NCBI GenBank assembly: GCA_041687335.1
Contig: JAWLCE010000001.1
Location: 168,619-232,618, forward strand
DNA length: 64,000 nt
Source: Sumerlaeia bacterium
GTDB lineage: Bacteria; Sumerlaeota; Sumerlaeia; MVZB01
Direction: 5' to 3'
The notes beneath the pieces were generated by a model, which did no database searches, was not told the DNA's origin, and was given only the letters and a program-made list of their open reading frames with translations. Positions 7,077 through 64,000 of this stretch are shown here, piece by piece. How positions within the stretch are numbered: the first letter of the stretch is position 1; every line of letters begins with the position of its first letter. The position numbers and the translations under genes are program-made.

Positions 7077-8263
7077 GCTGGACCACTCCCGCCGACATTC
7101 GTGCGCAGGCACGCCGGTTATGGGAGAGCGGGCGGCTGCCGGCCGCGCTGGTCACGGGAGAGGAGCTCTTCCCGCGCCGGCTGGTGCTGAAGAAACCCGG
7201 CTCGGGCGAGCTGGCCGAACAGTTCGCGCGGGTGCGCGGGTGGATCGACACACTGCGCAAGGGCGAGGCGGACGGCTACCGCATCCGCTGGCGCGAGTTC
7301 AATCATCGCGTGCTCGGCGTCAACTCGTTGCCCGACGAGATCTGGATCGATTCGACCGACGATGCGCTGCGCCTGATCGGCCAGCGCACGGCCGCCGCGC
7401 GACTGCGCGAACTGGCGGATCAGGCCCGGACGCGCCGGCCCGAGTTGCTCGCCTGGCTCGCGCGCCGTCCGCTGCGCGCGCTCGAACTGGCCCCGGACTG
7501 GCCGCGCCTGCTCGACATCGTCGACTGGCTGGCCGCCCACCCGCGCCCGGCCATTTACATGCGCCAGCTCGACCTACCGGGGGTGCACACCAAGTTCATC
7601 GAAGCCCATCGCGGCGCCCTCGCCGAGATGCTCGAGCTTGTGCTGCCGGCCGAGGCCGTCGATTGCGAGGCCTCCGGCATCGGCGGCTTCTGCCGGCGCT
7701 ACGGGTTTCGCGATCGCCCCCTGCGCGTGCGCTTCCGCCTGCTCGATCCCGCGCTGGCCGTCTTTCCCGGTGGCGGGGAGCAGGATATCACCGTCAATCA
7801 GGATGTTTTTGCCGCACTCCGCTTGTCGGTCCGTCGTGTCTTCATCACCGAGAACGAGATCAACTACCTCGCCCTGCCGCCGGTTTCGGCCGGCATGGTC
7901 ATCTTCGGCGGCGGCTACGGCTTCGAGATGCTGTCTGGCGCCGATTGGCTGCACGATTGCGCGGTGCATTACTGGGGCGACATCGACACTCACGGCTTCG
8001 CGATCCTCGACCAGCTGCGCGCGCGCCTGCCGCACGCGCATTCCTTCCTGATGGACCGCGAGACCCTGCTGGAACATCGCGCCCTCTGGGGCGAGGAAAG
8101 TCGGCCCGAAAAGCGCGACCTTCACCGGCTTACGCAGCCCGAAACAGCTCTCTATGATGACCTGCGTGAGGACCATTTGGCCCCGCGCCTGCGCCTTGAA
8201 CAGGAAAAAATCAGCTTTGACTGGGTCCGTCAAACTCTCAGCGGTCTCGGATTGATCGGTTGA
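7073..8263 (+). CDS. jetD: Wadjet JetD (DUF3322 N-domain plus DUF2220/Toprim-like nuclease domain; MksG-like)
   Basis: A 396-aa ORF with a GTG start overlapping the jetC stop (GTGA). The C-terminal region has a Toprim-like acidic motif (YWGDIDTHGFAILDQLR) preceded by ENEINYL. Its position and size fit JetD. Confidence 0.85.
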   Translation: MSWTTPADIRAQARRLWESGRLPAALVTGEELFPRRLVLKKPGSGELAEQFARVRGWIDTLRKGEADGYRIRWREFNHRVLGVNSLPDEIWIDSTDDALRLIGQRTAAARLRELADQARTRRPELLAWLARRPLRALELAPDWPRLLDIVDWLAAHPRPAIYMRQLDLPGVHTKFIEAHRGALAEMLELVLPAEAVDCEASGIGGFCRRYGFRDRPLRVRFRLLDPALAVFPGGGEQDITVNQDVFAALRLSVRRVFITENEINYLALPPVSAGMVIFGGGYGFEMLSGADWLHDCAVHYWGDIDTHGFAILDQLRARLPHAHSFLMDRETLLEHRALWGEESRPEKRDLHRLTQPETALYDDLREDHLAPRLRLEQEKISFDWVRQTLSGLGLIG

Positions 8264-45675: not shown

Positions 45676-45710
45676 AATGCCCCGCCGCCACCAACGCAAT
45701 CTTGCGGGTC

Positions 45711-45789
45711 CGGACCGAAGTGGCAGGTGGGGTCTTCAACTCGACGTGGCATCCAGTGTCGGCTCGAAGAGCCGACCTGCCTTGCCCGC
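45711..45789. repeat. intergenic repeat element copy A (~80 nt, contains perfect hairpin GTCGGCTC-GAA-GAGCCGAC at 45757-45775)
   Basis: It aligns at ~80% identity with 58860-58938 (cggacc..tggcaggt.gggtct..aac.cgac..gg..cagtgtcggctcgaagagccgacct.cc.t.cccgc). Confidence 0.55.
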
Positions 45790-45791
45790 AT

Positions 45792-55551: not shown

Positions 55552-57108
55552 TTATCGCCGGGCGTGCAGCGCATTCCCCGTGACCGGAATCCGGGCGCCG
55601 TGGAGCGCTTGGGCCGCCAGCGCGTCGCTGGCCCCCAGCAGCGAGACCCCATGGGCTGAGATCTCGGTGGCGCGCCGCCGCGTCAGCGGGTCCTCCAGCT
55701 CAAACCAGAACTGCACCGGACCCGCCTGCTCCAGTCGATAGACAATCCGCGCGACCGTGCCGCCCGGGTAGTTGATCGGCCCGCCCAGCGATCCCACCCC
55801 ATAATCGATCAGCCCCTGGTCGGCCACAACCTGGTTGGCTTCAAAACGGTCAAACGGGAAGCTGTCGTGAAAGTCGCCATCAAAAATATTCACGCCCAGC
55901 CGGATATAATTGTCCTCGTCGGCATCCAGGATGCTGATCCGCTCGGGCTGGTAGCGGATGCGGAAGCGCAGCCGGTCGAAGGCCGCCGAGGCGGGGTTGA
56001 GCAGCACCACGTCGGCCGTGCCGATCTCGCCCGGAGCCAGCTCGCCATGATTGGGAATGATGGCCAACCGCACGCGCTGCAGCGGGTCCAGTTCAGTCAG
56101 CTCCTGGCTGGCGCGCAGGTCCGCGACAAAGCGCGAGCCATACTGCTCGACCTGCTGCGGTTCGATGCGCAGCACCATCCGCATGGCGGCGACTCCATCG
56201 AGCAGGCGACTGTCGAGGATGTTGCGCTCGCCGACGTAGGCCCCCACCTCGGCCTCGGCCGGCGCGGACATATCCAAAGCCGACTGGACGGTCGCCTCAT
56301 GCGCCCGCCAGTGAATCTGCGCCAGCGGCTGGATCGCCTCGCGCATCGGCTCGCCCAGCCGGGCCACGATCTGCACAAGCCCCTCCTCACGCCAGACGCG
56401 CGTCTGGACCGGCTCGGCCGCCTGGGCCTCCAGCCACTGGGTATCAACCCAGTCGGGCTCAAGGATGCGGGGATTGTAGCGCACCCACAGCTCGACCCGC
56501 TCGACCGGTTCGGTCTCGCGATTGTAAAGGGTCAGGGTCGATGCAAAACGGTCGCCGACCTGGCCCTCGAAGGAGCTGGGTTCGAAAAATATCGCATTGG
56601 AACGGGCGTCGGCAGGGATCGTCAGCCCCGGCAGTTTCTCGGCGGGGGCGCCCCGGCGGGCAACGGCGCCGCCGGCGGGAGCCTGCCGGGTGATGGTGAC
56701 CCGCTCCTCGCCGGCGCGCGCGCGCTCGGCGCCCTCAGCGGCCGCCTGCGGGGGCGGCTGGCCCGGTCGAATCCCTTCCATCGTCCCATAGGCCGACGAG
56801 CCGCGCGTGCGACGCGAGGTGGCCCTGTCGCGGGTGGAGCGACTGGCTGTCTGGCCCGCCCGGCGATCGCGCAGCGACGAAGTGCGAGCCCGCGAGCCGG
56901 GTTCCATCTGGCCGAAGCTCGACCCGCCGAGACCACCCGGTCTGCCGCGGTCGCCCAAGCGCGACTCCCGCACCCCCGCGCCATTGGTCGGCTGTTCGTC
57001 CTGGGCCGGCAGCGAGCCCGAAAAGGTGGCCAACAGCGCCAGCCCTGCCGCCGGCAGCAGTCGCCGCAGCCGCGAAATGACGGTCATTCGATTGATTTTC
57101 CGCATCAC
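55552..57108 (-). CDS. secreted hypothetical protein, Arg/Gly/Ser-rich linker plus two cohesin-like beta domains
   Basis: A signal peptide (MTVISRLRRLLPAAGLALLATFSGSLPAQDE) and a low-complexity R/G/S region precede C-terminal repeated ~100-aa beta-rich units. The fold assignment is a guess. Confidence 0.4.
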   Translation of the reverse strand: MMRKINRMTVISRLRRLLPAAGLALLATFSGSLPAQDEQPTNGAGVRESRLGDRGRPGGLGGSSFGQMEPGSRARTSSLRDRRAGQTASRSTRDRATSRRTRGSSAYGTMEGIRPGQPPPQAAAEGAERARAGEERVTITRQAPAGGAVARRGAPAEKLPGLTIPADARSNAIFFEPSSFEGQVGDRFASTLTLYNRETEPVERVELWVRYNPRILEPDWVDTQWLEAQAAEPVQTRVWREEGLVQIVARLGEPMREAIQPLAQIHWRAHEATVQSALDMSAPAEAEVGAYVGERNILDSRLLDGVAAMRMVLRIEPQQVEQYGSRFVADLRASQELTELDPLQRVRLAIIPNHGELAPGEIGTADVVLLNPASAAFDRLRFRIRYQPERISILDADEDNYIRLGVNIFDGDFHDSFPFDRFEANQVVADQGLIDYGVGSLGGPINYPGGTVARIVYRLEQAGPVQFWFELEDPLTRRRATEISAHGVSLLGASDALAAQALHGARIPVTGNALHARR

Positions 57109-57117
57109 GTCACACCT

Positions 57118-58722
57118 TCATGGATTGACATAATCCATCTGCTGGGAGTGATTCCACGAGCTCGGATCAGGGGCGTCGGCCAGGTAATGGCAACCGCGGC
57201 TGGTGCGGTTCTGCAGCGCCGCATAAAGCACCGCCAACGCCGCCTGGACCCCATTTCGCAGGCCGATCAGGTCGTCGTCCAGTGCCGTGCGCCCATAGAA
57301 GGCCTCGATCTCCTGTTGCAGCTCCCGCAGGATCCGGTTGGCCCGTTGCATGCGCCGCTGGGTCCGGGTCAGGCCGACGTAGTTCCACATCGTGTACCTG
57401 ATGGTCATCCAGTCTTGCAAGATCAGTGCCGGATCGGCCGGCTCGCGCTCGGGCACCCACGGGTCGATTGGCGGCCAAGAGGGCGCCGACTGCTTGCGCC
57501 GGTCCATGATCGCCCCGGCCGCCCGCAACCCGAAGACCAGCCCCTCCAGCAGCGAGGTTGAGGCCAGCCGGTTCGCACCGTGCATCCCATTGCAGGCCAC
57601 CTCGCCCACCGCCCAGAGCCGGTCGATCGAAGTGCGGCCCTCCAGGTCGGTCATCACCCCGCCGCAGGAGTAATGCGCCGCCGGCACCACCGGGATCGGC
57701 TCGCTGGAGATATCGATGCCCAGCTTCAGGCACTGCGCGTGGATCGTCGGGAATCGCTCACGCACCCAGCGCGTCGGCTTGTGGCTGATGTCGAGCCAGA
57801 CGCAGGGCTCGCCGGTCTCGAGCATCTCCTGGTGGATGGCGCGCGCGACCACGTCGCGTGGCGCGAGCGACCCCAGCGGATGATGGCGCGCCATGAACTC
57901 ACTGCCGTCGCGCCGCACCAGCCGGCCGCCCTCCCCGCGCATCGACTCGCTGACCAGGAATCGCGGGGCATGAGGGTGATAAAGCGCCGTCGGGTGGAAC
58001 TGGACATACTCCACGTTCAGCAGTCGCGCCCCCGCGCGATAGGCCATCGCGATCCCGTCCCCGCGCGCCCCGTCCGGATTGGTGGTGTGCAGGAAAAGCT
58101 GGCCCAGTCCCCCCGTGGCCAGCACCGTGTGGCGGGCCATGATCGTCTCGACGCGGCAGGCATCGCGGTCGAGCACATAGGCCCCCACGCAGGTGTTGGG
58201 CTGATAAATGTCCAGCGGGCGGCGCGAGTGGTGCGAAAGGGTCAGAAGATCCACCGCCACCCAAGGCCGCAGCAATGTGATGCGGGGCTCCTCGTCGACG
58301 GCCCGCCACAGCGCCTCATGGATGCGCTGCCCCGTCCGATCCTCGCAATGCAGGATCCGCGGCACCGAATGGGCGCCCTCCTCGGTCACGTCATACTCGC
58401 CGTCGGGGCGGCGGTTGAAGTCGATGCCCAGCTCCTCGATCAGGACGCGCCGGACCGCCTCGGGACCCTCTTCGGCCAGCACCCTGGCCGCCGGTGGCCA
58501 GCTCAGCCCCGCCCCCGCCGTCACGATATCGCGCTCGAGCAGCTCGGGACTGTCGCCCGGCCCGGTATAGATGATGCCCCCCTGGGCCCAGCGCGTATTG
58601 GTGCGCTCGACGTCATGGCTGCGGTGCAGCATCAGCACCCGCGCGCCCGCCTGCGCCGCCTTGAGCGCCGTGATCGCCCCTGCAATCCCGCCTCCAATGA
58701 CGAGGACGTCTGTCTCGAGCAT
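57118..58722 (-). CDS. nadB: L-aspartate oxidase
   Basis: The N-terminus has FAD-binding DVLVIGGGIAGA. The active-site region (RPDGEYDVTEEGAHSVPR, HPTA) and typical length (~530 aa) are consistent with NadB rather than SdhA. Confidence 0.85.
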   Translation of the reverse strand: MLETDVLVIGGGIAGAITALKAAQAGARVLMLHRSHDVERTNTRWAQGGIIYTGPGDSPELLERDIVTAGAGLSWPPAARVLAEEGPEAVRRVLIEELGIDFNRRPDGEYDVTEEGAHSVPRILHCEDRTGQRIHEALWRAVDEEPRITLLRPWVAVDLLTLSHHSRRPLDIYQPNTCVGAYVLDRDACRVETIMARHTVLATGGLGQLFLHTTNPDGARGDGIAMAYRAGARLLNVEYVQFHPTALYHPHAPRFLVSESMRGEGGRLVRRDGSEFMARHHPLGSLAPRDVVARAIHQEMLETGEPCVWLDISHKPTRWVRERFPTIHAQCLKLGIDISSEPIPVVPAAHYSCGGVMTDLEGRTSIDRLWAVGEVACNGMHGANRLASTSLLEGLVFGLRAAGAIMDRRKQSAPSWPPIDPWVPEREPADPALILQDWMTIRYTMWNYVGLTRTQRRMQRANRILRELQQEIEAFYGRTALDDDLIGLRNGVQAALAVLYAALQNRTSRGCHYLADAPDPSSWNHSQQMDYVNP

Positions 58723-58859
58723 CGCCTGCCCCTCTTTTGCTGGTCCCCTCGCACTAGCCGTTCTGGCCCGGCCAGATCGCTAGATTATAGCGCTCCACAG
58801 GCGGATGTATAGTGTTTCAACCCCACCACGCGGCGCCCGGGCGCAGCTTGATTCCGATT

Positions 58860-58938
58860 CGGACCACAATTGGCAGGTCGGGTCTGTAACCCGACAGGGG
58901 CTTCAGTGTCGGCTCGAAGAGCCGACCTACCCTCCCCG
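58860..58938. repeat. intergenic repeat element copy B (hairpin GTCGGCTC-GAA-GAGCCGAC at 58897-58915; second hairpin TCGGG-tctgtaa-CCCGA)
   Basis: Paralogous to 45711-45789. It lies between nadB (minus strand) and the tandem array (plus strand). Confidence 0.55.
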
Positions 58939-58959
58939 CTTACGAATCATTCACGTGGG

Positions 58960-58989
58960 GTTGACAACTTGGCCGCCGCGCTTGTCTAT
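58960..58989 (+). promoter_or_regulatory. putative promoter (TTGACA at 58960-58965, -10-like TCTATT ~18 nt downstream), duplicated at 60080-60109
   Basis: A perfect -35 hexamer is embedded in the duplicated leader. It is followed by the strong SD GAGGTGGGGG and an ATG 40 nt downstream. Confidence 0.3.
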
Positions 58990-59028
58990 TTATGGCTGGA
59001 AACGTGCGGCAGATGAGGTGGGGGACGA

Positions 59029-59709
59029 ATGAAATTCAGCCCGGCTCAAGAAAAAATCGTGCAGAGGGCAGGTCTCCTCATGATCCCGATGCTATTCATC
59101 GGCTGGGTCCTGTATTTTTTTCTCCTTCGCAAAATTCAATCCGCAGATGCCGATCTGCCGCTTGAGACCGCAATTTTCTGGATACGGGAATCCATCGTCT
59201 GGAGGAGACTTTTCATCCCTCTGCTGACGCTCAACCTGATCGGCATTTTTTGCACTCTGCTGGCCTTGTCCTCCGAGTCCCTCACTCAATTGAGACGGAC
59301 CTTTCTGAGCATGATCATGGCCCTTGGAATCTTGGTGTTACTCGCTTCTGTCTCACTCATGAATTTTCTAATTCAACACAGTATTCCTGAGGCCATCAGC
59401 AGCGTCTGGGATAATAACAGGGCCGTCAGTCTTGCGATCTATGAATACCACATGATCCACGGCAAGTATCCAGACTCCATTGATGATGTGGTGCCCTATT
59501 TAGATGAATATTTCAGCATTTACGATGCATTTACTGGTGGTCGCGAAAAACTCTGGATCGGTCATACGCCCCAATATGTTGGGCTTTTCAGCGTCGGGCC
59601 CGACATGGAGCGCACCAACGAAAAGGGAGCCGTGCCGACCATACACTATGATCCAACCAACGGCACATACAGCAGCGGCGATCTTGTGACCCGTATATCT
59701 GAGGATTGA
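59029..59709 (+). CDS. membrane-anchored pseudopilin-like protein, paralog 1 (3 TM + GspG-like C-terminal domain)
   Basis: Three hydrophobic helices are followed by SLAIYEYHMIHGKYPDSIDDVVPYL ... SVGPDMERTNEKGAVP ... DPTNGTYSSGDLV. This resembles the globular domain of type II secretion pseudopilins (GspG) but has no class III prepilin leader. Confidence 0.6.
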   Translation: MKFSPAQEKIVQRAGLLMIPMLFIGWVLYFFLLRKIQSADADLPLETAIFWIRESIVWRRLFIPLLTLNLIGIFCTLLALSSESLTQLRRTFLSMIMALGILVLLASVSLMNFLIQHSIPEAISSVWDNNRAVSLAIYEYHMIHGKYPDSIDDVVPYLDEYFSIYDAFTGGREKLWIGHTPQYVGLFSVGPDMERTNEKGAVPTIHYDPTNGTYSSGDLVTRISED

Positions 59710-59755
59710 CCATCCAGAACATTATCAGCAATCAGCCGGAGTGGAGTTCGTCATC

Positions 59756-59990
59756 ATGCGCGCAATCTGGATGATATGTCTGACGTCGGCGGTCATCGCG
59801 CTCGGGCCGGATTGCCTGGCGACAGTGCTGGGAGTTACAACGCCGGAGAGGTATCCTTGGCTATATGGCGATTGTCATGAATCCCTTTACTTGCGTTTGG
59901 GCCCCAAGCTGCGGACTTTTGTGTCGCCCGCAGCTTAAATGGCGCCCAACCGCGGCTGCCCGGCTCGAACAGATCCACCTAGGTGGTGCC
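59756..59990 (+). pseudogene. decayed 5' fragment of GH5 gene (copy 1 of duplication)
   Basis: MRAIWMICLTSAVIALGPDCL matches the signal peptide of the intact GH5 (MLRAIWMIGLTSAVMALGPGCL). Downstream, PTAAARLEQIHLGG matches PAATARLEAIQLDEDG but in a shifted frame. Similarity is then lost. Confidence 0.55.
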
Positions 59991-60147
59991 GACCCACCCT
60001 CCCCGCCCCGTGCTGCGGTCGCACGCGACGACGGATCAATTTCATGGTTTCATTCTCCATACGAATCATTCACGTGGGGTTGACAACTTGGCCGCAGCGC
60101 TTGACTATTTATTGGTGGAAACGTGCGGCAGATGAGGTGGGGGACGA

Positions 60148-60849
60148 ATGAAATTCAGCCCGGCTCAAGAAAAAATCGTGCAGACGGCAGGTCTCCTCAT
60201 GATCCCGATGCTATTCATCGGCTGGGTCCTGTATTATTGTCTCATTGGCATTATTCAAAACGCGAACGCCGATCTGCCGCTTGCGAACGCACATTTCTGG
60301 ATACGGGAATCCATGGTCTTGAGGAAACTATACATCCCCTTGCTGGCGATTTGCGTGATCGGCATTTTTGGCGCTAATCTGTCATTATCCTCTGATTCCA
60401 TCACCGAATCGAGACGGACCGTGCTGGACATGATCATAACGCTTGGGATTTTTTTGTTGCTCGGTTCTCTTTGGTTCATAAATGGACGGATTGAATCCAA
60501 CATCTATGAGGCCATCGGCTGCGTCGGGAATAATCACAGGGGCGTCAGTCTTGCGATCTATGAATATCACATAATCCATGGCAAGTACCCAGACACCATT
60601 GATGACGTGGTGCCCTATTTAGATGAAAATTTCAGCATTTACGATGCTTTTACCGGCGGTCGCGAAAAACTCTGGATCGATCAAACGCCCCAACATGTCG
60701 GGCTTTTCAGCGTCGGACCCGACATGGAGCGCACCAACGTAGAGGGAGCCGTGCCGATCATAGACTATGATCCAACCAACGGCACTTTCAGCAGCGGCGA
60801 TCTTGTGACCCGTATTGAGAACCCAGCAACTTGGCGGCATCAGCCGTAG
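60148..60849 (+). CDS. membrane-anchored pseudopilin-like protein, paralog 2
   Basis: Versus paralog 1, the N-terminal 30 aa are ~97% identical, the C-terminal domain ~85-90%, and the central TM2-TM3 region only ~55%. Confidence 0.6.
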   Translation: MKFSPAQEKIVQTAGLLMIPMLFIGWVLYYCLIGIIQNANADLPLANAHFWIRESMVLRKLYIPLLAICVIGIFGANLSLSSDSITESRRTVLDMIITLGIFLLLGSLWFINGRIESNIYEAIGCVGNNHRGVSLAIYEYHIIHGKYPDTIDDVVPYLDENFSIYDAFTGGREKLWIDQTPQHVGLFSVGPDMERTNVEGAVPIIDYDPTNGTFSSGDLVTRIENPATWRHQP

Positions 60850-60860
60850 TGGAGTTCCTC

Positions 60861-62006
60861 ATGCTGCGCGCAATCTGGATGATAGGTCTGACGTCGGCAG
60901 TCATGGCGCTCGGGCCGGGTTGCCTCGGGACGGGCGCTGCCCTCGGCCGATCGCCGGCCGCGACCGCCCGACTCGAAGCGATCCAACTGGATGAGGATGG
61001 GCTGCATTTCATCCGGTCCGGTTCGCGGGAGCGGTTCTTTGTCTGGGGGGTCAACTATGACCGCGACGATGCGGGGCGGCTGCTCGAGGATTATTGGATC
61101 GGGGAGTGGGCCACCGTCGAGGAGGACTTTCGCGAGATCGTTGCGCTGGGGGCGAATGTCGTCCGGATCCACCTGCAGCTGGGCCGGTTCATGGCGCAAC
61201 CCAACGCGCCCGATCCGCTGGCCCTGGCGCAACTGGCGCGCCTTGTGAGGCTGGCCGAGCAGACCGGGCTCTACCTCAACATCACCGGCTTGGGATGCTA
61301 TCACCGTCAGGACGTGCCCGACTGGTACGACGGCTTGCCGGAAGCGGACCGCTGGGCCGTGCAGGCCCGCTTCTGGGCAGCCATCGCCAGGACCTGCGCC
61401 GGCAGTCCCGCCATCATGTGTTACAACCTGATGAACGAACCGATCCTGCCCGGGCGAGACCCCGAATCCGATTGGCTGGCGGGCGATCTGGCGGGGAAGC
61501 ATTACGTCCAGCGGATCGCGCTGGACCTCGCCGGCCGCACCCGGGAGCAAGTCGCCCAGGCGTGGATCGACCGGCTGGTCGAGGCGATCCGCGAGCATGA
61601 CAGCCGGACCCTGATCACCGTCGGCGCCATACCCTGGGCCATGGTCTGGCCCAAGGCCAAGCCGATCTTCTATGACCCGGAGGTGGCGCGGAACCTGGAC
61701 TTCGTCAGCGTCCACATCTATCCCAAGGAGGGCGAGGTTGAGCAGGCGCTCGCCGCGCTCGCCGTCTACAAACTGGAGAAGCCCCTGGTCATCGAGGAGA
61801 TCTTCCCGCTCAATTGCAGCATCGAGCAGATCGAAACATTCATCGGCCGCTCCCGCGACCGGGTCGACGGCTATATCAGCTTTTATTGGGGAAAAACAAT
61901 CGAGGAATACGCGCAGGAAGAGGGGCTCACTGCCGCGATCATGCACAGCTGGCTGACATGGTTCCGCGAGCATGCCACAGCTACAGGCCCCGGTCTGGAT
62001 GGCTGA
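60861..62006 (+). CDS. glycoside hydrolase family 5 (cellulase-superfamily) lipoprotein/secreted enzyme
   Basis: A signal peptide with LGPGC is present. The GH5 catalytic acid/base region is CYNLMNEPILPG (NEP motif) and a nucleophile-region candidate is PLVIEEIFPL. Confidence 0.75.
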   Translation: MLRAIWMIGLTSAVMALGPGCLGTGAALGRSPAATARLEAIQLDEDGLHFIRSGSRERFFVWGVNYDRDDAGRLLEDYWIGEWATVEEDFREIVALGANVVRIHLQLGRFMAQPNAPDPLALAQLARLVRLAEQTGLYLNITGLGCYHRQDVPDWYDGLPEADRWAVQARFWAAIARTCAGSPAIMCYNLMNEPILPGRDPESDWLAGDLAGKHYVQRIALDLAGRTREQVAQAWIDRLVEAIREHDSRTLITVGAIPWAMVWPKAKPIFYDPEVARNLDFVSVHIYPKEGEVEQALAALAVYKLEKPLVIEEIFPLNCSIEQIETFIGRSRDRVDGYISFYWGKTIEEYAQEEGLTAAIMHSWLTWFREHATATGPGLDG

Positions 62007-62304
62007 AATCGTGCTGAAGCGCGGCTGACCTTGATTCTCATTCATTTCGCAACGGTCGCGGAGAACTCAGGAAAAGAACTCAAAGGGTACGTGACATCAT
62101 GAACAGCGTATTGGGTCTGGGAAATCATGATTCAATTCCTGCCTTTGCGACCTTTGGTCATTTCCTCTGCGCCTTTGCGATAAAAAACATGAAGGTTCAG
62201 TTGGACTGAAAAATGGACACGTCTCTGCTTGACAGCCTGCGGCCGCGCTTCCAGACTCGTTCGATGCCCGCGCCTGCGCCGGCCATGCCACCAGGGAGCT
62301 TCAG

Positions 62305-63201
62305 ATGTCCGATCCCATCCGATTCGTGCAACGAGTCATCGGCCGGCTGACCGGCAAGCGAGAGCTGTTCGCCTTCACCCCGGCATACTGGGGGGCCGAG
62401 GGGATCGAGGTCGTGCCACTGCGCGAACAACAGTCGCGGCTGGGGCGCATCTTCGGCACGCGCTGGTTCTCGCGCGCCTACCCGGGCGTCGTTGGCCGCG
62501 TGCACATCCACGACACGATGCTGCTGAGCGATTCGCCCGAGGAAATCGCGCACTACATCAAAGTCGGCCAGTCGGCGATGGAGAACATCGAGGCGACGCT
62601 GGCGGCGGGCGGTCGCTCGCTGGAGGATGTCGGCGCCTGCCTCGACATGGCCTGCGGCTATGGCCGCGTACTGCGGCTGCTCCAGACGCGCATCGCGCCG
62701 GGGCGCATCACCGCCTGCGAACTCGAGGAGGAGGCGGTCCGGTTCCTGGCCGCCGAGTTCGGCGTCCGGCCGCTGATCTCCCAGAAGGACCTGTCGCGGC
62801 TCGAGTTCCCGGAGACTTACGACCTGATCTGGGTCGGCTCGCTGTTCACCCACCTGTCGCAGCCGGACGGCTTCGCGCTGCTCGAGAAGCTGGTCGGCCA
62901 GCTCAACCCGCGCGGGCTGCTCGTTTTCTCGACCCAGGGGGCGAGCTGCCTGGAGCATTTTGCCCAATATGGCTGGATGTTCGTGCCGCGCGAGGCGTAT
63001 TACCGCCACCAGCTCGCCACGGCCGGCTGGGCCTACTCCGATTATTACGAGAAGGACCCCGGCTATGGCATCACGATGTATCGCGAGGACGCGCTGGCTG
63101 GGATGATGGCCGAACAATTTGGCGACCGCCTGCGGCAGGTTTACATCCGCCATCGCGGCTGGGACGATCATCAGGACATCTGGGGCTACCAGCGCTTGTG
63201 A
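62305..63201 (+). CDS. class I SAM-dependent methyltransferase
   Basis: Motif I is LDMACGYGRVLRLL and the post-I acidic residue is CELEEE. RBS AGGGAG. It lies between the intact GH5 and a GH5 3' fragment. Confidence 0.65.
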   Translation: MSDPIRFVQRVIGRLTGKRELFAFTPAYWGAEGIEVVPLREQQSRLGRIFGTRWFSRAYPGVVGRVHIHDTMLLSDSPEEIAHYIKVGQSAMENIEATLAAGGRSLEDVGACLDMACGYGRVLRLLQTRIAPGRITACELEEEAVRFLAAEFGVRPLISQKDLSRLEFPETYDLIWVGSLFTHLSQPDGFALLEKLVGQLNPRGLLVFSTQGASCLEHFAQYGWMFVPREAYYRHQLATAGWAYSDYYEKDPGYGITMYREDALAGMMAEQFGDRLRQVYIRHRGWDDHQDIWGYQRL

Positions 63202-63246
63202 GGTGCAGGCCGGCGGCAGATTGGACCACGCCCGGTGCCCGCCGCG

Positions 63247-63310
63247 GCGATCCTGAGCAGCTGGCTGACATGGTTTTGCGAGCATGCAATGGCCACCGGC
63301 ACTGGCCTTT
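63247..63310 (+). pseudogene. orphan 3' fragment of GH5 gene
   Basis: GCGATCCTGAGCAGCTGGCTGACATGGTTTTGCGAGCATGCAATGGCCACCGGCACTGGCCTTTGA encodes ..SWLTWFCEHAMATGTGL*. This matches the GH5 C-terminus SWLTWFREHATATGPGLDG* at 61938-62006 at ~80% nucleotide identity. Confidence 0.5.
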
Positions 63311-63339
63311 GAATATACCGCCGCATGGGCAATTTATTT

Positions 63340-63714
63340 TTAATTGAGATCCACAATTGATTTAACTGGATCGCCTCCCGAGTTGCCAACAAGGATGACA
63401 CAATCATTTTTCAGAACCATCACAACCAAGTGGTCTTTTCCTTGCTGAAAATATGTTATTTCAGAGTTCGGCACGCCAAGATCTCCCATTTCCAGCACGC
63501 GCGCATAAAATTCATCCGGTGATGGGAGATCCCCATTAGTATTAACATACTGCTGTATATCATTCTTGATGGCATCGAGATATATCAAAGCATGTATTCT
63601 ACGGCAGTGATGAGATGTTCCCCTTGACACATGTCCACACGGATGCTTCACCGTGCACGAAGTCGTGAAACATGTAAAGATGAGAACGATTAAAACGCTG
63701 GGTATTCTTTTCAT
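63340..63714 (-). CDS. hypothetical lipoprotein encoded by an AT-rich (~40% GC) gene
   Basis: A lipoprotein signal (LIVLIFTCFTTSC) is present. GC content drops sharply relative to the ~67% flanks. The start overlaps the stop of the upstream sensor kinase (ATGA at 63711-63714). Confidence 0.5.
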   Translation of the reverse strand: MKRIPSVLIVLIFTCFTTSCTVKHPCGHVSRGTSHHCRRIHALIYLDAIKNDIQQYVNTNGDLPSPDEFYARVLEMGDLGVPNSEITYFQQGKDHLVVMVLKNDCVILVGNSGGDPVKSIVDLN

Positions 63715-64000
63715 CTCATTCCCACCTCGGCTGGCGCCGGCTTGGGGGGCGGGAAGGTGATCCGGAAGCAGGCACCGCCCTCAAGGGTGTTCTCCGCCAC
63801 GATCGTGCCCTCGTGCAGGTCCTGCACGATCGTGCGCACCCAGTTGAGGCCCAGCCCCTCCCCGCGCGACTCGTCGCGCCGATTCGTGTAACCCAGCTCG
63901 AAAATCTTCTCGATCTCATGGGGCAGCGCCCGGCTGCCGTCGGGGTTCAAAATCCCGGCGCCGCTGTCGCTGACCATGATGAGCAGCCCGCCATCCTCCC
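63711..64000 (-). CDS. sensor histidine kinase, C-terminal HATPase_c domain (partial, continues past the window end)
   Basis: G1/G2-box region GGLLIMVSDSGAGI ... GEGLGLNWVRTIVQDLHEGTIVAENTLEGGACFRITFP. Confidence 0.7.
   Translation of the reverse strand, partial: EDGGLLIMVSDSGAGILNPDGSRALPHEIEKIFELGYTNRRDESRGEGLGLNWVRTIVQDLHEGTIVAENTLEGGACFRITFPPPKPAPAEVGMR

Follow-up and report, generated by a model that had tools for sequence, protein, structure and literature searches.

It is well established that tandem duplications arise in bacteria by illegitimate recombination, whether or not microhomology is involved, and the process has been examined in Salmonella, E. coli and Acinetobacter (PMC11111574 and references therein). 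In this study, we consider a direct repeat in a 64,000-nucleotide stretch of DNA from Sumerlaeia bacterium (GenBank assembly GCA_041687335.1, contig JAWLCE010000001.1, positions 168,619 to 232,618 of the forward strand), hereafter called the window. The repeat contains a leader, a gene for a small membrane protein (m1 and m2 in the first and second copies, respectively) and the beginning of a gene for a glycoside hydrolase of family 5 (GH5). It is an old, diverged tandem duplication, which is an ordinary paralogy event in bacteria, and the best explanation, which we hold to be probable, is that it arose by illegitimate recombination and that both copies of m were retained. As in known bacterial tandem duplications, the copies are arranged head-to-tail and share a novel end-to-start junction, with one breakpoint that is intragenic and has left a truncated extra 5' fragment and another that lies in a palindromic intergenic repeat. 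Laboratory duplications, however, are usually large, recent and unstable, whereas the present one is about 1 kb in length, fixed and old, with a nucleotide divergence of 15.6% and copies that evolve separately. Repetitive extragenic palindromic (REP) elements were reportedly described at duplication join points in Salmonella by Shyamala et al. in EMBO J in 1990.

Gene conversion and concerted evolution between bacterial paralogs are known, for example, from tufA and tufB of Salmonella. The two copies considered here resemble that case in containing a sharply bounded, near-identical tract (178 nucleotides (nt), 97% identity, no synonymous substitution, i.e., dS = 0) within diverged paralogs, but the tract covers only the non-coding leader and the first 30 codons, and there are only two sequences to compare. 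The encoded proteins resemble the pseudopilin GspG (PF08334) in having a hydrophobic helix, an amphipathic helix (..AVSLAIYEYHMIHGKYPDSIDD..) and a small beta domain, and their S-V-G-P-D motif aligns to SLG(A/P)DG of GspG. Unlike GspG, they have no G-F-T-L-I-E motif for prepilin cleavage and methylation, and their pilin-like helix is the third of three, placed after an N-terminal extension of about 90 residues. Moreover, m1 and m2 score below every Pfam threshold, and no genes for a type II secretion system (T2SS) or a pilus were found nearby (no secretin, ATPase or platform gene among the open reading frames (ORFs) scanned in 40-64 kb of the window). The intact GH5 gene is a typical full-length member of the 'cellulase family glycosylhydrolase' found in metagenome-assembled genomes (MAGs) of Planctomycetota, Verrucomicrobiota and Sumerlaeota; unlike its relatives, of which 86 loci were compared, it forms an operon with m, an arrangement seen only in the source genome.

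Extent and junction of the repeat

Positions 58941-59823 and 60060-60931 are joined by blastn into a single alignment of 883 columns with 84.6% identity. A repeat search identified two head-to-tail blocks in this region, one pairing 58941-59240 with 60060-60359 (300 nt, 89% identity, spacing 1119) and the other pairing 59731-59823 with 60839-60931 (93 nt, 89%, spacing 1108). The onset of similarity is abrupt, at TACGAATCATT (58941/60060), and the 60 columns that precede it in a MAFFT alignment are unrelated. When the junction described below is included, the duplicated unit extends from 58921 to about 59987 in copy 1 (1,067 nt) and from 59988 to about 60990 in copy 2 (about 1,003 nt), and it consists of the leader, m and the first ~43 codons of GH5. 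The difference in length between the copies is made up of the 53-nt indel at 60007-60059, a 10-nt indel at the end of m and about 97 extra nt in the GH5 fragment.

The original prediction, made from the sequence of the window, was of a segmental duplication in tandem that ends on the right within GH5 and leaves only the second GH5 intact, with near-identical leaders and a paralogous membrane protein of 226 or 233 amino acids (aa) in each copy. Self-alignment bears this out, since extended nucleotide identity is present; the leaders are identical at 84 of 88 positions, and both membrane protein ORFs are intact and encode proteins that are 72% identical. The join point between the copies strengthens the case further. 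The unit was proposed to be ~1.12 kb in length, but the contiguous repeat comprises 883 nt and the unit itself is shorter than proposed.

The join point was found as a short sequence in front of copy 2. The 19 nt at 59988-60006 (GCCGACCCACCCTCCCCGC), designated E', match 58921-58939 at 18 of 19 positions, and the latter segment directly precedes unit 1. A pattern search with the 19-mer returned these two sites (58921 and 59988) and one at 45771 with 3 mismatches, where 0.14 chance matches are expected. The trace of GH5 in copy 1 stops at about 59985, that is, just before E' begins. When a segment a..b is duplicated in tandem, b becomes joined to a between the copies, and this is what is observed at ~59985/59988. 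A perfect 12-nt palindrome, CCACCTAGGTGG (59975-59986), is situated exactly at the join, between the GH5 trace and E'.

The sequence that E' repeats is the 3' end of E0, an imperfectly palindromic intergenic repeat of about 88 nt. E0 can be folded into two hairpins, GTCGGGT..ACCCGAC and GTCGGCTC-GAA-GAGCCGAC (fold z about -2), and the left breakpoint of the unit is located within the second hairpin, at the 3' end of E0. With nhmmer, two full copies of the palindromic repeat were identified, E0 and Ex, each of which also matches itself on the opposite strand, so that the occurrences in the 64 kb amount to two full copies and the one 19-nt fragment. The repeat may belong to a REP-like family; no exact match to its 25-nt core was returned from the metagenome collection. 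Both E0 and Ex are located upstream of a minus-strand gene (nadB and an ORF ending at 45699, respectively). The hairpins upstream of unit 1 were also considered as a structured RNA or a tRNA fragment, and this was rejected: ARAGORN reported no tRNA in the window, and Rfam gave nothing in 56000-64000 at E<=1. The features of the locus are listed in Table 1.

Table 1. Features of the duplicated locus and its surroundings, in window coordinates
Feature	Position	Strand	Basis
E0, ~88-nt imperfectly palindromic intergenic repeat, possibly REP-like, two hairpins	58852..58940	.	81% over 80 nt to 45711-45789; nhmmer; fold
Leader copy 1, TTGACA at 58961-58966, GAGGTGGGGG ribosome-binding site before ATG	58941..59028	+	84/88 identical to 60060-60147
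m1, 226-aa membrane protein, three hydrophobic helices followed by GspG-like periplasmic domain	59029..59709	+	ORF, hydropathy, remote homology
GH5 5' fragment: signal peptide 59756-59824, ~97 nt net extra within 59825-59949, out-of-frame 'ARLEQIHL' trace 59950-59980	59756..59985	+	
E', 19-nt copy (18/19) of the 3' end of E0, duplication join point	59988..60006	+	pattern search and alignment
53-nt segment present only before copy 2 (indel relative to copy 1)	60007..60059	+	alignment
Leader copy 2, TTGACA at 60080-60085	60060..60147	+	
m2, 233-aa paralog of m1, stop 11 nt before GH5 ATG	60148..60849	+	
Intact GH5 glycoside hydrolase, 381 aa, signal peptide ending LGPGC	60861..62006	+	PF00150 E=4.8e-14
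GH5 3'-end remnant AAILSSWLTWFCEHAMATGTGL	63244..63308	+	78% nt identity to 61932-61996
Ex, second full copy of the palindromic repeat, between alkaline phosphatase gene and next gene	45702..45790	.	
nadB (L-aspartate oxidase), divergent upstream neighbour, conserved chromosomal backbone marker	57118..58722	-	TIGR00551 E=8e-148
Class I SAM-dependent methyltransferase, downstream, outside the repeat	62305..63201	+	PF13649 E=4.7e-11

Divergence and selection

Of the 885 aligned columns, 138 differ between the two copies (12 of these being gaps), and the m proteins differ at 28% of their residues. By the Nei-Gojobori method, the proportion of synonymous differences (pS) over all codons of m is 0.215 and dS is 0.25. 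These values are not uniform along the gene: dS is 0 in codons 1-30, where no synonymous change is found at 18.8 synonymous sites, 0.37 in codons 31-130 (ratio of nonsynonymous to synonymous substitution, dN/dS, 0.83; range of dS in the middle region, 0.37-0.49) and 0.20 in codons 131-218 (dN/dS 0.29; Fisher p=0.011). With divergence of this extent, the duplication cannot be called recent, as had been supposed.

Nucleotide identity forms a corresponding mosaic. It is 95.5% in the leader, 97.8% in codons 1-30 of m, 74% in nt 91-390 and 91% in nt 391-669 of m, 65.5% (with 8 gap columns) from the stop of m to the ATG of GH5, and 87% in the GH5 signal peptide. At the protein level, m1 and m2 share 28 of 30 residues in 1-30, about 50% in 31-130 and 81 of 93 in 131-223. 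Indels are found only in the non-coding parts (8-11 gap columns in 59661-59750), and there is none in the 223 aligned codons of m. Because indels are restricted to sequence outside the m ORFs and dN/dS in the C-terminal domain (C-domain) is 0.29, both m ORFs are real and are maintained by selection; their divergence is concentrated in membrane helices 2 and 3 and in the loops. It had also been proposed that the duplication doubles the dosage of the membrane protein. That proposal does not suit two selected copies whose transmembrane parts are so strongly diverged, and the pattern looks like divergence of function rather than a doubled dose.

The same comparison bears on whether the repeat might be an assembly artefact, in which a single unit was wrongly expanded. 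The tandem arrangement is all that speaks for such an error. A misassembly makes near-identical copies and does not produce a divergence of 15%, and the 138 differing columns are accompanied here by different protein lengths and different stops, the 53-nt indel, two open frames and a C-domain dN/dS below 1; a chimera of two strains, in turn, would not yield a tandem of the two versions joined by a clean junction. We therefore regard an artefact as extremely improbable.

The leader and the first 30 codons together make up the 178-nt tract mentioned above, which contains 5 differences where about 28 are expected (P(<=5)=3e-8). At the pS of 0.245 calculated for the rest of the gene, the probability of finding no synonymous change in codons 1-30 is about 0.005. 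Selection at the protein level cannot explain an identity of this kind. Most likely, the tract was produced by gene conversion between the tandem copies; regulatory constraint at the nucleotide level would be the alternative. No sign of a conserved RNA structure in the tract was given by Rfam or by fold scores.

Each leader contains a TTGACA hexamer, and each copy was originally thought to keep its own promoter there. The hexamer is indeed conserved, but no acceptable -10 element is present 16-18 nt downstream: the hexamers 17-18 nt after TTGACA are poor (GTCTAT/TCTATT in copy 1, GACTAT/ACTATT in copy 2), and a consensus promoter scan called no sigma-70 promoter at either site. Note that TTGACA occurs 14 times in the window, which is about the number expected from its composition. 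The two sites may nevertheless have promoter activity. The leader has no match in Rfam, and a structured leader RNA was rejected, with fold z-scores of -1.5 and -0.6 that are not significant and with two copies that fold differently. A third, decayed leader in front of the methyltransferase gene (TTGACA at 62229, then GCGGCCGCGCTT) was rejected as well: its local alignment score of 24 is not significant, being equalled or beaten elsewhere in the window and in 6 of 1000 shuffles for copy 1 and 101 of 1000 for copy 2.

The m1 and m2 proteins

Hydropathy analysis places three membrane helices near residues 24, 70 and 102 of the m proteins. Neither protein belongs to a Pfam or NCBIfam family or gives a match to N_methyl, and m2 is a singleton cluster in the NCBI protein set. 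In a word-indexed search of 5.8 billion proteins, the only full-length matches were m1 and m2 themselves, both on one NCBI contig of 340,709 bp. A HMMER search of 1.84 billion representatives using a profile of the two sequences gave 103 proteins, nearly all of which, m1 aside, match only residues ~91-226. One metagenomic protein of 210 aa (P0217) has the same layout of three helices and a GspG-like domain, with a marginal E-value of 6.5e-4.

PF08334 (T2SSG) or the prepilin motif N_methyl is present in those relatives of the C-domain that were checked. They include canonical pseudopilins (MKAFTLIELL...) as well as fusions to BlaR1/M56 peptidases, and the signature YSVGPD...YDPTNGTxSxGD is common to them. 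When remote relatives are included, the C-domain profile matches the GspG structures 2kep, 1t92, 5wda, 29jd and 3g20 with E-values from 4e-4 to 1.6e-2, and all of the top seven structure matches are GspG. The C-domain of m is thus homologous to GspG, and the relationship is a remote one that is detected via profiles only. An AlphaFold2 (AF2) model of residues 88-233, calculated on the alignment of remote relatives, has a mean predicted local confidence (pLDDT) of 75.5 and consists of a 56-residue helix followed by a small beta-sheet, in a pilin-like topology. A full-length AF2 model calculated from the two paralogs alone had a pLDDT of 47.5 and was unusable.

The canonical N-terminus of prepilins is absent from m: the protein starts with MKFSPAQEKIV, and its pilin-like helix, which corresponds to the N-terminal helix of pilins and begins at residue ~90 (RRT-FLSMIM in m1, RRT-VLDMII in m2), has no Gly-1, Phe+1 or Glu+5. 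Cleavage of m by prepilin peptidase is improbable. The term 'pseudopilin-like', which was first applied to the whole protein, is therefore appropriate for the C-terminal ~140 residues, which match GspG by profile, but not for the protein as a whole, in which the prepilin motif is lacking. The best explanation is that m is a polytopic inner-membrane protein whose third helix and C-domain derive from a GspG-type pseudopilin.

A GspG-like domain is also found at the C-terminus of proteins of about 1,000 aa (P0126, P0129, P0130, P0140 and P0142) that are remote matches to the C-domain of m, and P0126 and P0129, the two that were scanned against Pfam, are BlaR1/M56-peptidase membrane proteins. In these phyla, pseudopilin modules therefore seem to serve a second purpose, as the periplasmic domains of polytopic membrane proteins.

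The m genes differ from their surroundings in composition, with a GC content of 49% and a GC content at third codon positions (GC3) of 0.60, versus a GC3 of 0.80-0.87 in nadB, GH5, the methyltransferase gene and other neighbours. Such a composition points to a gene of foreign or recent origin whose duplication followed its arrival. Together with the palindromic repeat that flanks m and the near absence of relatives of the family, the atypical GC3 might also be taken to indicate two independent insertions of a mobile m cassette beside GH5-like targets. However, on either side of m the repeated segment extends into host sequence, taking in the 3' end of E0 on the left and, on the right, 24-43 codons of GH5, which is GC-rich and widely conserved; this agrees with the copying of a piece of chromosome and not with a discrete element. 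No transposase, integrase, terminal inverted repeats or target-site duplication was seen in the repeat, ORF and domain scans. We consider independent insertions very improbable.

A functional link between m and GH5 may exist. In an extended form of this idea, m1 and m2 would be the founders of a new class of uncleaved, polytopic, membrane-anchored pseudopilin-like proteins whose translation is coupled to that of a secreted or lipid-anchored GH5 and which act on this enzyme (for instance, as a tether or by presenting it at the envelope). Retention of the two copies would be due to differing specificities of their divergent transmembrane parts, and the 178-nt tract would be a selected regulatory element and not a product of gene conversion. 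We give little credence to this combination of assumptions.

The GH5 gene and its remnants

Relatives of the intact GH5 protein number more than 4,000, at ~60-66% identity, and come mostly from Planctomycetota MAGs. The NEP motif (N192-E193-P194) and the EE pair (E312-E313) are invariant across 20 relatives. At L002 4472-7155 and L004 173-2856, the GH5 ortholog of one relative (64% identical) is located directly downstream of a neutral/alkaline ceramidase gene (PF04734), and the GH5 protein of the window has a faint NCBIfam match to endoglycoceramidase (E=0.044). Both observations hint at glycolipids as possible substrates of the conserved GH5 family, whose members may not be cellulases.

In copy 1, the first 24 codons of GH5 recur at 59753-59824 with 75% aa identity (tblastn, E=3.6e-6). 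Beyond them, the 31 nt at 59950-59980 match 60958-60988 at 25 of 31 positions, a score that was reached in none of 1000 shuffles; this trace encodes ARLEQIHL in a shifted frame, where the intact GH5 has ARLEAIQL. The first GH5 had been described as containing a frame-shifted stretch, and that description is correct. The 60-codon ORF of the 5' fragment is unannotated in the protein set of the source genome. Pseudogenisation of an interrupted gene, which was the explanation first offered, does not account for the fragment: because the end of similarity at ~59985 coincides with the end-to-start junction, the short copy was never a whole gene. It was truncated from birth, and later decay added only the ~97-nt indel and the frameshift.

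A second GH5 remnant is located on the other side of the intact gene, 42 nt past the stop of the methyltransferase gene and in the same frame. It encodes 22 aa that are 77% identical to GH5 residues 358-379 (E=6e-6), ends at its own stop and corresponds to the conserved C-terminal helix of the GH5 family. Consequently, GH5 remnants are present on both sides of the block formed by E', m2, GH5, a spacer and the methyltransferase gene.

This arrangement could be read as the insertion of that block into a split gene. The original locus would have been E-leader-m1-GH5a, and a 3.25-kb block (59986-63233: E', 53 nt, leader, m2, GH5b, spacer and methyltransferase gene) from a paralogous or foreign copy would have replaced the interior of GH5a, leaving its ends as the remnants at 59756-59985 and 63244-63308. 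The 5' and 3' remnants bracket exactly this block, they are similarly diverged from the intact gene, GH5b (81-87% identity for the 5' remnant and 78% for the 3' remnant), and the m genes are compositionally foreign. However, such an insertion needs a donor with the same E-leader-m-GH5 order and hence an earlier duplication anyway, and neither a second locus nor a donor turned up in any of the collections searched. Moreover, both C-terminal tails have the lineage-specific residues SWLTWF.EHA.ATG.GL, which are not present in other GH5 relatives, so that the source cannot have been distant, and the left junction is exactly as a plain tandem duplication predicts. On balance, we think a split-gene insertion unlikely.

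Origin of the duplication

The explanation that we prefer is a tandem duplication. Illegitimate recombination with little or no homology would have copied a unit of ~1.0-1.07 kb, extending from the 3' hairpin of the possibly REP-like palindromic repeat through the leader and m to about codon 43 of GH5. The product would have been E0, followed by the leader, m1 and GH5 codons 1-43, and then by E', the leader, m2 and GH5 codons 1-43, continuing into the rest of GH5. In this product, the upstream piece of GH5 would have been incomplete from the beginning and would have drifted since, gaining the ~97 extra nt and the frameshift, and the downstream GH5 would have stayed intact, 11 nt from m2. Both copies of m would then have been kept by selection while diverging mainly in transmembrane helices 2 and 3 and the loops, and the leader and first 30 codons would have been kept, or made, nearly identical, most likely via gene conversion.

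Several points weigh against this explanation or parts of it. The junction has drifted, so that the exact crossover is unreadable and shows at best a microhomology of GA(A/T)GAG. The 3' remnant of GH5 is not predicted by a single tandem duplication and needs at least one further rearrangement; on the preferred reading, it was probably left by a separate, older one. No related locus was found in the genome contigs scanned with m2, and the exact proteins are not in the contig index; with no relative that has the locus, copy number and ancestral state stand without comparison. Gene conversion and functional constraint are inseparable as causes of the 5' tract when only two sequences are available. 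Finally, for the pseudopilin origin of the C-domain, Foldseek ranked type IV pilins first, without significance (best E=0.19).

Neighbouring genes and relatives

The genes around the repeat are nadB, GH5, the methyltransferase gene, and genes for transporters and glycosyltransferases. The arrangement nadB-m1-m2-GH5-methyltransferase is specific to the source genome: at the GH5 loci of the 86 relatives, an m-like gene, nadB and this methyltransferase gene are all absent within 6-8 kb. The closest relatives of nadB are from an unclassified MAG (79% identity) and from Candidatus Sumerlaeota MAGs (64-70%). The synteny of nadB and p518 is kept in relatives, and the side that faces m has different genes there. 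A 26-nt word from the leader gave no match in the metagenome search.

In GCA_021372575.1, which has the closest relative of nadB, a canonical prepilin-type GspG-like gene (L087 7155-7811; MKRGFTLIELL..., 218 aa, ending YDPTNGTNSNGDVYKLKQ) is found immediately upstream of nadB and in the same orientation. Its deposited annotation begins at 7320 (163 aa), so that the prepilin N-terminus is missed.

On the minus strand of the window, at 63340-63714, there is an ORF of 124 aa with a GC content of 42% and a GC3 of 0.42, in a genome of 66% GC. It has a Cys-rich start and a hydrophobic segment at the N-terminus, and it overlaps, at its start, the stop of the C-terminus of a histidine kinase (63711-63977). 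The ORF has no Pfam match and is absent from the protein collection; membership in the m family was considered and rejected (hhalign probability 0.7%).

Significance

The locus opens no new question and overturns nothing. Its value is modest, as a cleanly readable case from nature in which an operon has acquired a paralog through a tandem duplication of about 1 kb, whose breakpoints lie in a palindromic repeat and within the following gene, and whose copies were retained, diverged and homogenised at the 5' end. Two side points are of modest interest, namely the sharply bounded tract of 5' identity and the atypical membrane protein derived from GspG. In the latter, a pseudopilin module of the GspG type has been put to new use as the periplasmic domain of a membrane protein with three helices; the lineage is one close to Sumerlaeota and Planctomycetota, in which such modules are abundant and mostly uncharacterised.

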